From Mobula hypostoma (lineage: Eukaryota), in assembly GCF_963921235.1 (NCBI RefSeq), contig NC_086097.1, forward strand, positions 111,416,001 through 111,480,000: DNA of 64,000 bases. The letters are read 5' to 3'. Position numbers and translations under genes: made by a program. Positions within the stretch are counted from its first letter, which is position 1; each line of letters opens with the position of its first letter. The notes under the pieces were generated by a model, which was not told the DNA's origin, did no database searches, and worked only from the letters and a program-made list of their open reading frames with translations. Positions 53,922 through 64,000 of the stretch are shown one piece after another.

Positions 53922-54056
53922 TGTAAACATAAATTCGCTGGACCAAATCACTACACCACAGACAAGTCTTTATTTTAACCTTTCACCTGTCTATTTGTTC
54001 GAACTCAGCCGGCGAGAACCTTGAGCCGAACATCAAAAAGATACAGAAATTCTCTC

Positions 54057-54916
54057 AACACACGTAAAAGTTGCAGGTGAATGCAGCAGGCCAGGCAGCA
54101 TCTCTAGGAAGAGGTACAGTCAACGTTTCGGGCCGAGACCTTTCGTCAGGACCAACTGAAAGAAGAGCTAGTAAGAGATTTGAGAGGGGGAGGAGGAGAT
54201 CTGAAATGACAGGAGAACACAGGAGGGGGAGGGATGGAGCCAAGAGCTGGACAGTTGATTGGCAAAAGGGATATGAGAGGATCATGGGACAGGAGGCCTA
54301 GGGAGAAAGAAAAGGGGGAAGCCACATATTTAAATTCCACGTCCCATTCCCATTCTGATATGTCCATCCATGGCCTCCTCTACTGTAAAGATGAAGCCAC
54401 ACTCAGGTTGGAGGAACAACACCTTATATTCCGTCTGGGTAGCCTCCAACCTGATGGCATGAACATTGACTTCTCTAACTTCTGTTAATGCCCCACCTCC
54501 CCCTCGTACCCCATCCGTTATTTATTTATATACACATATTCTTTTTCTCTCTCTCCTTTTTCTCCCTCTGTCCCCCTCACTATACCCCTTGCCCATCCTC
54601 TGGGCTTCCCCCACTTCCCCCTTTTCTTTCTCCCTGGGCCTCCTGTCCCATGATCCTCTCATATCCCTTTTGCCAATCAACTGTCCAGCTCTTGGCTCCA
54701 TCCCTTCCCCTCCTGTCTATCATTTTGGATCTCCCCCTCCCCCTCCCACTTTAAAATCTCTTACTAGCTCTTCTTTCAGTTAGTCCTGACAAAGGGTCTC
54801 GGCCCAAAACGTTGACTGTACCTCTCCCTAGAGATGCTGCCTGGCCTGCTGCGTTCACCAGCAACTTTTATGTGTGTTGATTGAAATTCCAGCATCTGTA
54901 GATTTCCTTCTGTTTG
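54057..54916 (+). mobile_element. Penelope 3' fragment with inverted pseudo-LTR, inserted in the ERV LTR
   Basis: 13-bp TSD CAGAAATTCTCTC (54044-54056, 54917-54929). About 54057-54320 is the reverse complement of about 54612-54879, with the GIY-YIG C-terminus in between. Confidence 0.88.
54118..54153 (-). ncRNA. Minimal hammerhead-ribozyme-like motif of the Penelope pLTR
   Basis: GGTC-CTGACGA-AAGGTCTCGGCCC-GAAA-CGTT-GACT: CUGANGA and GAAA core boxes, stem I GGUC/GACU, palindromic AACGTT. Confidence 0.6.
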
Positions 54917-55240
54917 CAGAAATTCTCTCTCTCTTTCTGGTGGCTCAACCAGCTTCTGACTTGACAGGCAGAAAACACTACAATTTATAAGATTAACAGA
55001 CAAAAAACACTCAGTTACCATGATATTCCCGCCAAGTCAGTTAGAGCAAACTTAATTAATTAGATGAGAGTACACTAAATCACGGGTTTTAATTACAGAC
55101 AAATTCTTGCCTTATCAGTAAAACTTGAATAGACAAAGGTGGGAACATAGATCAATATGTGAACCCATAAGAGATGATGTATGCAGCATGTGTGAATACA
55201 GCTCACAGATCGTTCTCCAAGGGACAGCTGTGAGTTAATA

Positions 55241-56734
55241 CAGGTGTCCCCCACTTTCCAAACATTCACTTTACAAAACCTCGCTGTTATGAAAAAAGGC
55301 AACGCATGAAAATAGCAGCGTGCGCCCCAAGCAGCCAAGATCCTCTCCTGGAACTGCATTCTAGCCGGCATTGCTTAAACATGCGCCTGTGTGCAGCCGT
55401 AAGCAAGATGAGTTCTAAGGTATCGGAAAAGCCTAAAAGAGCTCATAAGGGTGTTACACTTAGCGTAAAACTAGACATAATTAAGCATTTCAATTGTGGT
55501 GAACGAAGTAAGGACTAATGAGTTTGGCTTGTGGAAGTTGACAAACATGATGTTGAAGAGGTTTTGGCATCCCATGACCAAGAACTGATAGATGAAGAGC
55601 TGATGCAATTGGAAGAGGAGAGGATAACAAGCCAAACCAAATGCAGTAGCAGACAGACTGAAAGTGAAGTCGTCCAGGAACTGAAAGTGAAGCAACTGCA
55701 TGAGATTTTCGCTGCAATGATTGCAGAAAAGTACGACTTTAATTTTGAAAGGGTACATAGGTTTAGGGCATATTTGCAGGATGGTTTGAGTGCTTGCAAA
55801 GAACTGTATGATAGAAAAATGCGCAGGGCTAAGCAGTCAAGCATACTGTCGTTTTTCAAGCCTTCCACATCAGCCACAGCAGACGACGAACCTCAACCTT
55901 CGACATCCAGGCAGGTAGACATAGAAGATGACCTGCTTGCCCTGATGGAAACAGACAACGATGAGATGACACCCCAGTGTCCCACCACCCCAACCCCCGG
56001 GCCACGGACCGATACATTGCCGCTGAGAATGCAGTGGTAGCTGGAACGCACCCGACGCATCTTTAGGAAAAAAGCTGAAATAAACAAGCTAATTAATTAG
56101 GTGTCGCCCAGCACGTAAATAATTAGCTTGCTTATTTCGACGTTTTTCTTAAAGATGTGCTGGGTGCGTCCCGGCCACCGCTGCACCCCTGCATGCTTCG
56201 CGGATCGGTATCGGTCGGCGGCCTGGAGGTTGGGGACCACTGCACCACCCTAACCCCCGACGACTCAGCCTAACACACCATCATCAGCGTGCTTGACGCT
56301 GTCTTCCCGATTCCGGTAACTGATACTATACTGTACATACATTATTTCTACTTTATATAGGCTGTGTATTTTTATGTGTTATTTAGTATGATTTGGCAGC
56401 TTTGTAGCTTAAAGGTCACTGCAAAGAATGTTTTTGCCGAGAGCGCTTGTGTGAGATTTTCGCTACGAAGAACAGTGCGGCAATGACTGTAGAAAAGTAG
56501 TTCTACTTTATATAGGCTGTGTATTTATCATATCATTCCTGCTATTACTATATGTTACTGTTATTTTAGGTTTTGTGTTATTTGGCATGATTTGGTAGGT
56601 TATTTTTTTAGGTCTGCGAACGCTCACAAATTTTTCCCATATAAATAAATGGTAATTGCTTCTTCACTTTACGATATTCCGCTTACGAACTGTTTCATAG
56701 GAAGGCTCTACCTTTGGATGGCGGGGGAAACTTG
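55241..56734 (+). mobile_element. Internally deleted Tigger/pogo transposon inserted in the ERV LTR
   Basis: TA-flanked imperfect TIRs CAGGTGTCCCCCAC and GCGGGGGAAACTTG. The HTH N-terminus MSSKVSEKPKRAHKGVTLSVKLDIIK is joined to the acidic C-terminus (DVEEVLASHDQELIDEELMQLEE...KQSSILSFFK). No DDE domain. Confidence 0.85.
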
Positions 56735-56749
56735 TATAAACAAACTGAA

Positions 56750-61454: not shown

Positions 61455-62118
61455 CAAGGCTGTCTGTTTAGTTGCTTCATCAACTCTATCATTGCCCTTA
61501 GATATCTCGTCAGATTCCCCAGTATGGGTTGCACATTTAATAACAGCCAAAACTCGAGGTAGCTGTAGAGTAGTAAGTTGCTTACAAAGGTAGCATTACT
61601 AATGGCAGGGGAGGGGGGCAGAGGAAGTCAGGAATCCCCAAAGTTCCGTAGTGAGTGCATAACGGGAGTCTGTGTAAAAGTTCGCACTTCAGTCTGTTTG
61701 AGATGTCTTTTCCACAGGCTTTTTCATTTTAAAATTCAACATGTTAATCAAAGAGGATTCCAGTTTATGCTTGTACTCCTCCACTGAAGCCCTCATTCAG
61801 GTCCTCTTTATTTTGTTACAAATAGTTGTGGACTCCCTCTTCAAAGTCATCTTCATTTATGACGTTGCATTTTTTTTTAGGTCTTCTACAAAGAATTGGT
61901 CTTGTGGTGGATTCTTCAAAATCAGAACTGAGTAAGCTGTTAGACTGCACTTTGGTCTGTTGCTAGCATACAGGCATGAGTCAGAGCAAGCTGCTCAGCT
62001 TTCTGGGCGGAGAAAGCTGCTTCAAAGGAGACTTGCTCAATTACTTCACTGTTGTCACTTATGGCATAGCCAGAACATCATTTTCCTGTTGGATCCACAA
62101 AAGAGCTTCCATCCTCAA
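61455..62118 (-). pseudogene. Retroviral RNase H, split by a 258-bp insertion
   Basis: DGSSFV...GYAI...SAQKAEQLALTHAC..A, then NFYTDSRYA, GFLTS and LPRVLAVIKCATHTGESDEISKGNDRVDEATK. Confidence 0.9.
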
Positions 62119-62299
62119 AACATTGCCTCGGGCTTGAGGGGGTATTGCAGAATGGATGGGAGAGTCTGTCCTTTTCTCACGGTGATCCAGACAGGAGGGG
62201 CAGTTGGTGCGGCCTACTTCATGGCCTGAAATTGCCCAGAGATGGGGTACAACGTCTTGGGTTCGGTCAATATTAAAAGAGTGTGATACCAGATGTCCC

Positions 62300-62700
62300 A
62301 TCTTCACCTCCGACTCCTTCTAGTATCGTAGTCGGCCCGCGGCCAAATCTTGCCATTCTCCCTCAGTGCTAGAGGCTTCTTTTGTCAGGGTGTAGGCAAG
62401 GAACCCTAGGCTCTTTGGCTTGAACACAGGGCGAACCCTAACGGTGGTATGGGACACCACCAGTCCTGTCTATCACCGAAGGAAACACGGAACTTCAGCC
62501 AGTAACGCACTACCCTCTCTTCCTTTAACTTCTCCAGTCACCGTGACTGGGGACTTCAGTCCCTTGAAGTGTGCATAATATTGGCTCTCCTCAATTGAGC
62601 ACCCTGTAGGTTCATAGCAGAGAGTCACATGGGGATTGACGTCTGGCAGTGGGGGTTCAAACCAAGTGGAGTCCAGATTAAATGTCTACCATTGGGGGGT
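62300..62700 (-). pseudogene. 2H-phosphoesterase-like domain between protease and RT
   Basis: In frame with the RT N-terminus: PHVTLCY (62620-62631), GREGSALLAEV, then SHTTVRV.P.FKPKSLG (62440-62451). Two HxT motifs 60 aa apart. Confidence 0.7.
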
Positions 62701-62837
62701 TGGTAACTGAACTGTCGGCTGTTCACTAATCCCAGGATGATACCCCTGTCTGTGCTTAGAATCTCGACTTCCAATGGACAGAACAAGTCTCACTCTGCTA
62801 GATTACACCCCACACTGGGACATCTGGGCTGTAAACC

Positions 62838-64000
62838 TCACACTGGGTCCCCCTGGAATTCCACGTGCGTTCTGTGCTTCGGTTCCCATTTCTGATCCCC
62901 AGATATAGCCCGCTCGCATCCTTCTTCCTGCTGAACATATTCACCTTTAATATTAGTTCCCTTCTGGGTTGATCGGGATTCAAAAGCCAGGTCCCAGTAA
63001 TATGTCAAAGCTCGTCGTGTTTGATTTCGATCAGAGTCAGACCAATCCATATTATTTGTTTTAATCATGTTGGCTAACTTAATTGGTATGCCTTGGAGCA
63101 ATAAGGCATTAAACTGGGTGTGGGGGAGGCTAATTCCCATTAATTAAAGGCTTAGTCTACTGCAAAAGTGCCATAGCAGGCCACAAGTCTCTCCCGATAG
63201 TCTGGTCCCGATTTCTCAGGCTTAGGTTTGCATTCAAGTACTTAGTGATATTTACAGGTTGTTGGAGAGTCCTCTCCAAGGCTTGAATGATCTGGTCTGT
63301 CTGTTCATTCTCATTATGGATTCCCGCCTGTAACTCCTGATAGGTTTGGTATCTTAATTCTGCAGACTGAATAAATCTTGTGGGGTTGCATTATACGTTT
63401 GTATAGTACTGCAGACATACTGAGCAAACTGTACTGGTTTTTCTTTTCTATCTGGGGCCTGATTCATGATCATTATGATTTCTTGAGGCTTCCAAGATGC
63501 ATGGTTTTATTAGATTCTCCCCCCCCCCAACCACTCGGAATAATCCTCGGTATTCCCTTCCTAGATCTCAGGGTATAGAGAGCCTCCCCTTCCCTGCCAC
63601 CGCTGCTTTACCTGAGCAGCCACCATATTTGAATACTGGGAGGATTGGGGTTTGGGAGCACTGGGTGCACTTGGCCCCTGGTAAGGTGGGGGATACGGTG
63701 ACTGCCCAATCCTCATCGCAGTCACTGTCCTCAAACAGGGTCAGTATGCCAGATATAGGTTTGGGATCCCGTATTGGCCCTGGATTTCATGAGCAGCACT
63801 ACCGATTTAAAACCTTCCTGTCTGTCCATATGTGCCTTTGCCTGTTTTCTTTGTTCTTCATTCTCTTTCTTCTCCCTTCTACCCATTCGCACTCTGCCTT
63901 CAACGTCTCCCAACTCTTGGGAGTGCCATCACCTGTACATACCTCTACCCCTTCTATCACAGGCGTTTTTCCTCCAAATGGCCAGTAAAGTATTATTCCA
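62838..64000 (-). pseudogene. Retroviral gag (partial, decayed)
   Basis: Late domains PPPY, PSAP and LYPEI; MHR-like ECKPKPEKSGPDYRERLVACY (about 63170-63240); capsid C-terminus FNALLLQGIPIKLANMIKTNNMDW. Confidence 0.8.

Follow-up and report, generated by a model that had tools for sequence, protein, structure and literature searches.

The window analysed here, a 64,000-nucleotide stretch of the Mobula hypostoma genome (C1:111416001-111480000), contains from position 53922 onwards an endogenous retrovirus (ERV) that carries, inside its integrase coding region, a spliced copy of the host message for beta1-adaptin (AP1B1), a subunit of the AP-1 complex. Recurrence of the same virus-host junctions between different flanks supports amplification of the chimera as one unit at ~22 loci of the assembly searched (3.48 Gb, 200 contigs). 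We regard it as very probably a fossil left when an ERV that was already defective, and had a gamma-type Env, took up the host message by template switching, a process known as long terminal repeat (LTR)-mediated retroposition or retroviral transduction. A sequence-only reading of the window had likewise proposed retroviral capture of a spliced AP1B1 message, not a retrocopy made by a long interspersed nuclear element (LINE), and this proposal held: the cDNA is intronless, lacks a poly(A) tract and a target-site duplication (TSD) of its own, and has viral sequence on either side. The captured adaptin itself looks like a passenger and not like a viral tool.

The captured message and its parental gene

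The adaptin block, 1.64 kb long (Pfam Adaptin_N, 2e-41), was traced by exon-by-exon matches to a parental gene on the minus strand of C78 (~24232975-24265702); a more distant paralogue is present on C71. Nine exon pieces of the parent were located and their AG/GT borders mapped, with a first intron of 6 kb, and the joined exons encode a canonical beta1-adaptin N-terminus and trunk. The parental exons for residues ~386-515 and the C71 paralogue lay outside the comparison. Because the intronless ERV adaptin is colinear over the seven mapped parental exon-exon joints, including the one at the 6-kb first intron, and continues into the last piece, its template was a spliced mRNA. When a 298-aa open piece of one copy (L027) was compared with the Protein Data Bank (PDB), it scored 550 bits against AP-1 beta1 and 529 bits against AP-2 beta, with all 8 AP-1 rows ranked above all 7 AP-2 rows. 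The captured part, from the ATG to P-P-S-A-F-V-E, corresponds to the 584-586-residue trunk constructs of the AP-1 PDB entries, and the hinge and ear are missing. The window's own adaptin copy is disrupted by stops and frameshifts and is the only one among the fetched copies with a ~100-nt deletion near 59338. A short adaptin-like fragment containing stops was also seen at C50:113764268-113764488 (76-81% at the protein level).

Layout of the provirus

LTRs were located by self-comparison of positions 50001-64000 together with the adjoining 8 kb (L021). They bound a minus-strand provirus that extends from 53922 to ~65253, past the window end, and reads in order 5' LTR, primer-binding site, gag remnants, RNase H-like stretch, integrase, adaptin block, env stump, polypurine tract and 3' LTR (Table 1). 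The 5' LTR is intact (~0.6 kb at 64645-65253, beyond the window), and the 3' LTR is split by nested insertions into three pieces (57848-57702, 55234-54928 and 54056-53922) with 90.8-92.6% identity to it. The element has TG...CA termini and a 4-bp TSD, CCAA, and 53922 is the exact end of the 3' LTR. The gag region continues as far as the window end. The integrase core matches Pfam rve (1.6e-17 at 60484-59972, minus strand), W-R-G-P-H is read at 59750-59736, and the pol frame terminates at a TGA that overlaps the adaptin ATG (ccATGa). The primer-binding site is TTTAGTGCCGTGACTCGGAT in the window copy and TGGTGCCGTGACTCGGAT in two other copies, and is presumably similar to the complement of the 3' end of tRNA-His. 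The integrase with its W-R-G-P-H, the ATG at 59730, the polypurine tract and the LTR had all been named in the sequence-only reading and were confirmed.

Both virus-host junctions map inside host exons

Uninterrupted viral sequence was read in three adaptin-less relatives, L045 (C12), L046 (C59) and L047 (C9), all of which read GGACCA-TATCAGG, ~40 nt and CTGA-A-GGGGCAATC (that is, CTGA A GGGGCAATCTCGG TGG ATA CAT). The chimera reads GGACCA-CACTCACC-ATG on the 5' side and GTGG-A-GGGGCAATC on the 3' side. The cDNA therefore displaces viral sequence, namely ~40 nt of the integrase coding region encoding Y-Q-V-L-L-T-T-P-K-A-V-K-L, the end of the C-terminal domain, and has integrase sequence on either side. 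The integrase tail had been described as missing at the site; its last codons in fact come after the cDNA, in frame with the adaptin, and are followed by the pol-env spacer.

Around the 5' junction the sequence is cag|GAAACCTTCTTCCACACTCACC-ATG in the host exon and GGACCACACTCACC-ATG in the chimera. The crossover lies within a shared CCA (59741-59739), a 3-nt microhomology, and 8-11 nt of host 5' untranslated region (UTR) were kept, in place of the 5 nt (TCACC) first counted before the ATG. Since the ATG exon of the host begins 22 nt before the ATG, and an RNA-like Logan contig extends the host 5' UTR still further upstream, the earlier description of the cDNA as 5'-complete applies to its coding part and not to its 5' UTR. 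On the 3' side the host exon has GTGGAAGG|CAGCAG and runs 46 nt past the junction. Most copies have GTGG-A-GGGGCAATC there, with one shared base and 6 of 9 positions matching, and the window copy carries a later G-to-A change. Both junctions fall within host exons, away from splice sites, which rules out splice-mediated joining. Inspection of the cDNA ends of the window copy revealed no poly(A) and no TSD, as had been stated before.

The env deletion is a separate event

The env frame of the window starts M-C-W-L-I-V-V, seven codons corresponding to the signal-peptide start in L045 and L047. At 57990/57989 the frame passes straight from this signal peptide into the membrane anchor and Cys-rich tail of the transmembrane subunit (TM), whereas in these two relatives the surface subunit (SU) comes next. 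The Env of L047 ends in the same anchor and tail, which bears out the env-like TM tail noted from the sequence alone, and its ectodomain matches TLV_coat (1.1e-9) and has a C-x6-CC motif. Env-bearing relatives, which the same reading had suggested looking for, are represented by L045 (signal peptide and SU) and L047 (signal peptide, SU and TM). The env-deletion junction is spanned by 14 hits: one in the window element, 12 spread over 11 further loci with adaptin (two of them in L033), and one in L046 (C59:151900-152799), which has the same env deletion without the adaptin and comes nearest to an "empty" progenitor form. Because the junction is also present in adaptin-less L046, env loss was an event separate from the capture. 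The cDNA is an insertion in integrase that displaced ~40 nt and is no replacement of env; the view that AP1B1 stands in place of env had to be given up.

Copy number and spread

The assembly was searched with a 181-nt probe for the 5' junction (40 of 120 candidates scored) and a 221-nt probe for the 3' junction (40 of 132 scored), and the resulting counts are lower bounds. Sequence from both sides of the 5' junction was found at at least 24 places, the window locus included, and at at least 16 further places the match stopped at the junction, marking adaptin-less relatives. The 3' probe gave at least 24 spanning places, again with the window locus, along with 14 viral-side-only and 2 adaptin-side-only matches (one of the latter being the parental exon on C78). 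A match to the opening 21 nt of the adaptin frame, with 0-2 mismatches allowed, was present once in the parental gene and in association with ERV sequence at 24 places. In total there are at least 27 chimeric places (24 plus 3 found by the 3' probe only), spread over at least 14 contigs, far beyond what chance would produce. Counting neighbouring duplicates once (two copies on C5 separated by 100 kb, an inverted C75 pair, and groups on C22 and C99) leaves ~22. Within L033 (C22:135787500-135797499) and on C99 at ~1.85, 2.75 and 3.05 Mb, near-identical chimeric elements are inverted or repeated and look like products of local segmental duplication after integration.

Twenty chimeric places were fetched, 10 kb each. 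The same 5' junction is present in all 19 fetched copies that contain the ATG, and a 90-nt probe for the 3' junction was spanned in 10 of 21 rows (the window element and the 20 fetched loci). The TSDs differ, along with the flanks, in three of the four elements examined for their ends: CCAA in the window, TATC in L027 and CTAC in L034. Different flanks combined with different 4-bp TSDs indicate spread by integrase-mediated integration. The sequence-only reading had suggested a BLAST search with both junctions, and its outcome, the same junctions at ~22 loci with different flanks and three different TSDs, is that of a chimera amplified as a unit. At L040 (C36:6881500-6891499) the 3' end of an internal region precedes the 5' LTR and the flanks are alike; the arrangement is perhaps that of tandem elements with a common LTR, and the TSD is unreadable.

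Logan contigs, which are independent of the assembly, bridge the 3' junction in the same organism, one of them with 0 differences, and contigs of two other organisms (B and C) bridge it as well. Organism B also has further contigs, 98% identical to the window locus itself. Among the sequencing runs listed as holders none was given as RNA; one run (X4), which we guess to be RNA, contains high-depth contigs resembling the parental mRNA and two low-depth contigs identical to the window locus (57937-58140 and 59169-59450). The latter could be read-through, intronic RNA or DNA carry-over and were not counted as provirus expression.

Age, decay and selection

Within each of the three elements measured, the two LTRs are ~92% identical. 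Over 1371 host-anchored positions the distance from a copy to the parent is 5.3-9.3% and that between copies 5.7-13.9%, and the copies form a shallow star with two loose subgroups. Such a star, with copy-to-copy distances exceeding copy-to-parent distances, indicates that divergence arose mostly after integration and that the copies integrated at about the same time. Vertebrate neutral rates in common use, uncalibrated here, would make them tens of millions of years old. Translation of five uninterrupted copies gave stops and frameshifts in every frame. When copies were projected onto the host coding sequence, all 21 rows had frame-disrupting indels, counted as bases deleted or sites of insertion, and 18 also had in-frame stops (0-8 per row).

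For variant counts, differences from the host coding sequence were classed by the number of copies sharing them, using 16 of the 21 rows and 1371 of ~1760 nt; left out were the short L032, L036 and L041, the second L033 copy, and L039 and L037, which duplicate L035 and L038 respectively. The neutral fraction of nonsynonymous (N) changes expected at the observed kappa of 2.75 is 0.73. Private variants, present in one copy, comprised 367 N, nonsense included as in the following two classes, and 122 synonymous (S) changes (N fraction 0.751, n = 489). Variants in at least two but fewer than 80% of copies comprised 128 N and 56 S (0.696; p = 0.17 against private variants). For non-CpG variants in at least three copies the counts were 39 N and 16 S (0.709, n = 55; p = 0.52 against private variants and p = 0.76 against 0.73), corresponding to an omega of ~0.9 with a rough 95% range of 0.5-1.7. 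Near-fixed variants, in at least 80% of copies, comprised 4 N and 15 S (0.211, n = 19), with no nonsense change among the 19; these differences are unpolarised, and the pattern is the one expected from the conserved host gene's own branch. We saw no sign that the adaptin open reading frame (ORF) mattered while the lineage was replicating; mild constraint, or a short functional phase before the burst, is possible. Two other measures were set aside: copy-versus-parent dN/dS (0.23-0.99), for which the conserved host branch alone gives ~0.5, and pairwise NG86 estimates among copies (median 0.70, 120 pairs), which are biased by the transition excess (kappa ~2.75).

Coding capacity and class of the carrier

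Pfam recognised no families in the gag-like and pol-like ORFs of the window. Among 53 sense ORFs of at least 50 aa from three chimeric copies, there was no match to protease (PR) or reverse transcriptase (RT), and the only matches were to rve (5) and, weakly, to RNase_H (2) and Gag_p24 (2). A 162-aa ORF between gag and RNase H had no hits among PDB sequences at E up to 1. The distance from capsid to RNase H is ~1 kb, which, judged by the genome sizes of retroviruses, is too little for nucleocapsid, PR and RT. The carrier was probably already defective at the time of capture. Because no PR or RT was detected, env is gone and the integrase C-terminus is cut, mobilisation probably depended on proteins supplied in trans. 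With regard to class, the gamma-type, class I-like Env features (TLV_coat, C-x6-CC) are those of the relative L047 only, and the adaptin-bearing copies retain the anchor and tail. The TSD is 4 bp long, the closest solved integrase is that of a foamy virus (1.5e-13), and there is no RT for phylogenetic placement.

Other features of the window

Coordinates of the provirus and its nested insertions are collected in Table 1. Pieces of the insertion at 54057-54927 were found beside or within many other fetched loci, as for a common small repeat of this genome. The two long ORFs at 55522-56040 (+) and 56871-57425 (-), in the larger insertion, matched no Pfam families and appeared transposon- or LINE-like by eye. 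The 636-nt insertion in pol has a 202-aa open frame, also with no Pfam families, and a similar piece is present in the opposite orientation in L030. Elsewhere in the window, GC skew reaches 0.19-0.39 (G over C, 2-kb bins) at 2001-6000, 22001-26000 and 32001-34000, possibly owing to G-rich repeats, and GC content is raised to ~0.50-0.53 in 2001-6000 and 32001-34000 only.

Table 1. Features of the adaptin-bearing provirus and of insertions nested in it (window coordinates).
Feature	Position	Strand	Remarks
TSD CCAA, 3' side	53918..53921	-	TTTACA|CCAAttaac; partner gtcCCAA|TGAAG before the 5' LTR, just beyond the window
3' LTR, last segment, ends TTTACA	53922..54056	-	91.2% identity to 64645-64780 of the 5' LTR
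Nested insertion in 3' LTR	54057..54927	.	inverted arms 54055-54321 / 54880-54614, 267 bp, 90.3% identity
3' LTR, middle segment	54928..55234	-	92.6% identity to 64775-65083
Nested insertion(s) dividing 3' LTR	55235..57701	.	two long ORFs (see text)
3' LTR, first segment, starts TGAAG at 57848	57702..57848	-	LTR self-comparison
Polypurine tract	57849..57862	-	aaaaaggagggaa immediately before the LTR
env stump, 42-codon frame	57881..58009	-	signal-peptide start joined to TM anchor and Cys-rich tail
Last integrase codons, viral side of 3' junction	58071..58095	-	G-Q-S-Q-R-I-Y-stop here; G-Q-S-R-W-I-H in relatives
Spliced beta1-adaptin (AP1B1) cDNA	58096..59738	-	8-11 nt 5' UTR, ATG 59730-59728, trunk to P-P-S-A-F-V-E
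5' junction, shared CCA	59739..59741	-	virus GGACCA|TAT; host 5' UTR cttCCACACTCACC-ATG
Integrase, core 59972-60484	59742..60600	-	C-terminal domain cut at W-R-G-P
636-nt insertion in pol	60634..61269	.	absent from the alignments of all fetched copies covering the region (gap 4231/4868 of the reference element)
RNase H-like region, approximate	61930..62130	-	alignment to copies L023 and L027; RNase_H E 2e-4 to 1.4e-3, below the Pfam cut-off
Gag capsid-like region, approximate	63285..63417	-	alignment to L027; Gag_p24 E 1.2e-4 and 3.3e-4, below the cut-off

Proposed origin of the chimera

What was observed directly (the make-up of the provirus and its junctions, the parental gene, amplification with differing TSDs, decay and a neutral N:S ratio) would fit the following course of events. 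A host AP1B1 mRNA would have been co-packaged with the RNA of the defective virus. During minus-strand synthesis RT may then have left the viral template in the region coding for the integrase C-terminus, copied the spliced host message from its trunk-coding end up to 8-11 nt before the ATG, and gone back to the viral RNA ~40 nt upstream of the point of exit. The product would have been gag, RNase H, truncated integrase, adaptin trunk, integrase tail and env stump between two LTRs. This unit would have been mobilised repeatedly, probably with the help of proteins in trans, integrating at ~22 loci at roughly one period and decaying neutrally since.

Several points weigh against this reading. 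The 3' microhomology is 1 nt, so that similarity-guided switching is weakly marked there, and capture of a cDNA fragment at the DNA level, at a break in a provirus, would leave an identical scar. The cDNA is in sense, has its own ATG in good context and ends almost exactly at the trunk boundary; no nonsense variant is present in at least 80% of copies, and a once-expressed protein is possible. The selection test is of limited power, with omega ranging from 0.5 to 1.7 over 1371 of ~1760 nt in 16 copies. The absence of PR and RT was read from decayed copies scanned as ORFs of at least 50 aa only, and no full-length helper was identified.

The scar just mentioned could have come from end joining or LINE machinery that placed a cDNA fragment or an ordinary processed pseudogene into the DNA of one provirus, which was copied afterwards. 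This is not fully separable from template switching by sequence: it sits well with a single nucleotide of 3' microhomology, and end joining would likewise replace a few tens of bases. We nevertheless give it little credence, because the cDNA lies in sense, displaces viral sequence where it might have interrupted it, and has the hallmarks of LTR-mediated retrocopies as given in the available text of PMC5131818. Moreover, it lacks poly(A) and a TSD, is 3'-truncated within an exon and is nearly 5'-complete, the reverse of the LINE pattern, and on these grounds a LINE-made processed pseudogene was ruled out. Some copies do owe their existence to local duplication (the C5 pair, the inverted C75 pair, and the C22 and C99 clusters), but that all of them stem solely from segmental duplication of one locus, or from misassembly, is scarcely credible. 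For the family as a whole it is contradicted by three TSDs and flanks that all differ and by copies on at least 14 contigs, and misassembly also by assembly-independent Logan contigs that bridge the junction, one without a difference.

A different question is whether the adaptin was a true viral accessory gene, that is, a trunk-only beta1-adaptin expressed, for example, from an env-type spliced RNA and acting on AP-1 sorting, perhaps as a clathrin-blind competitor, to the benefit of the lineage or its helper. Its sense orientation would suit such a role, as would the ACC-ATG context in all 19 fetched ATG-carrying copies (with the start codon itself altered in L030), a frame that runs on into the integrase tail, a captured part that matches the 584-586-residue trunk of AP-1 core structures, the lack of nonsense changes among the 19 near-fixed variants, and the occurrence of the lineage at ~22 loci and in three organisms. 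It is improbable all the same: variants that arose during replication look neutral (N fraction 0.709 against 0.73 expected), every inspected or projected copy is broken, the carrier yielded no PR, RT or env, relatives without the adaptin are likewise abundant (at least 16 places), and the near-fixed 4N:15S is what a conserved host branch would give. The suggestion in the sequence-only reading that a retrovirus lineage carried a viral beta-adaptin is currently unsupported, as nothing shows that the lineage made use of one. In a more specific form, to which we assign a low probability, the founder would have expressed a protein of residues 1 to ~587 plus a short integrase tail, lacking hinge and ear. 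It would have entered AP-1 cores without recruiting clathrin, a retrovirus-borne dominant-negative adaptor favouring spread of the element or its helper, and the dispensable gene would look neutral only because amplification was mostly one short burst. If so, the dominant-negative adaptor would have altered sorting in infected germ-line cells.

Comparison with known systems

Acutely transducing retroviruses that carry v-onc genes have defective genomes with a spliced host cDNA, depend on helpers, and have junctions formed by RT recombination. Transduction by template switching, as proposed here, would give the adaptin provirus the same kind of genome and junctions, with helper dependence also likely. 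It differs from them in that there is no sign that the captured adaptin was selected or expressed, in being fixed in the germ line in many copies, and in the very little viral sequence displaced by the capture. In walleye dermal sarcoma virus, an exogenous virus, rv-cyclin is a host-derived accessory gene that is intact and functional; the two cases share a host-derived gene in a retrovirus, but the adaptin is a decayed passenger.

Among ERVs, the available text of Chong et al. 2014 (PMC4299795) describes CrocERV29, with KIT-ligand between pol and env in 9 ORF-retaining copies, and CrocERV31, with nectin3 in place of env in 6 insertions. According to the same text, codon tests indicate purifying selection on both crocodilian captures, and the captured genes are cell-surface or secreted. 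As in those ERVs, coding sequence from a spliced host message lies here close to the pol/env boundary, was multiplied as a unit and is common to related species. Unlike them, the adaptin chimera is present at ~22 loci with all inspected or projected copies broken and a neutral N:S ratio, it holds the trunk of a cytosolic adaptor, its site is inside the integrase coding sequence, and its carrier is apparently without PR, RT and env.

LTR-mediated retroposition is the subject of Tan et al. 2016 (PMC5131818), where HERV-K/FAM8A1 and maize Bs1 are cited as cases. The likenesses to what the available part of that paper describes are a sense retrocopy within discontinuous LTR-element sequence, replacement of part of the element, a truncated 3' end, the lack of poly(A) and of a TSD around the retrocopy, retention of both LTRs, and further retroposition in which the switch points stay the same. 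Microsimilarity at the switch points, a further hallmark described there with a median of 6 bp, has at most a short counterpart in the chimera (3 nt and 1 nt). The chimera differs in a copy number far above the 1-5 of Bs1 or the two Drosophila insertion sites given there. The statement in the sequence-only reading that no such case had been described was too strong for the kind, as the available text of both papers (PMC4299795, PMC5131818) presents ERVs with captured host mRNAs. No adaptin captured by a retrovirus was found there or in literature searches covering titles and the beginnings of abstracts of the top-ranked papers, which is a weak negative.

Significance

The adaptin provirus provides a multi-copy vertebrate case of host-mRNA capture by a retrovirus. 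With the parental gene, an "empty" viral form and the chimera all persisting in one genome, both of its switch points can be placed to the exact base. For annotation, the family is useful in recognising AP1B1-like pseudogenes, and it supplies a dated marker family common to related species. It also indicates that even a virus in whose genome PR, RT and env are undetectable can acquire host sequence and spread it ~22 times.

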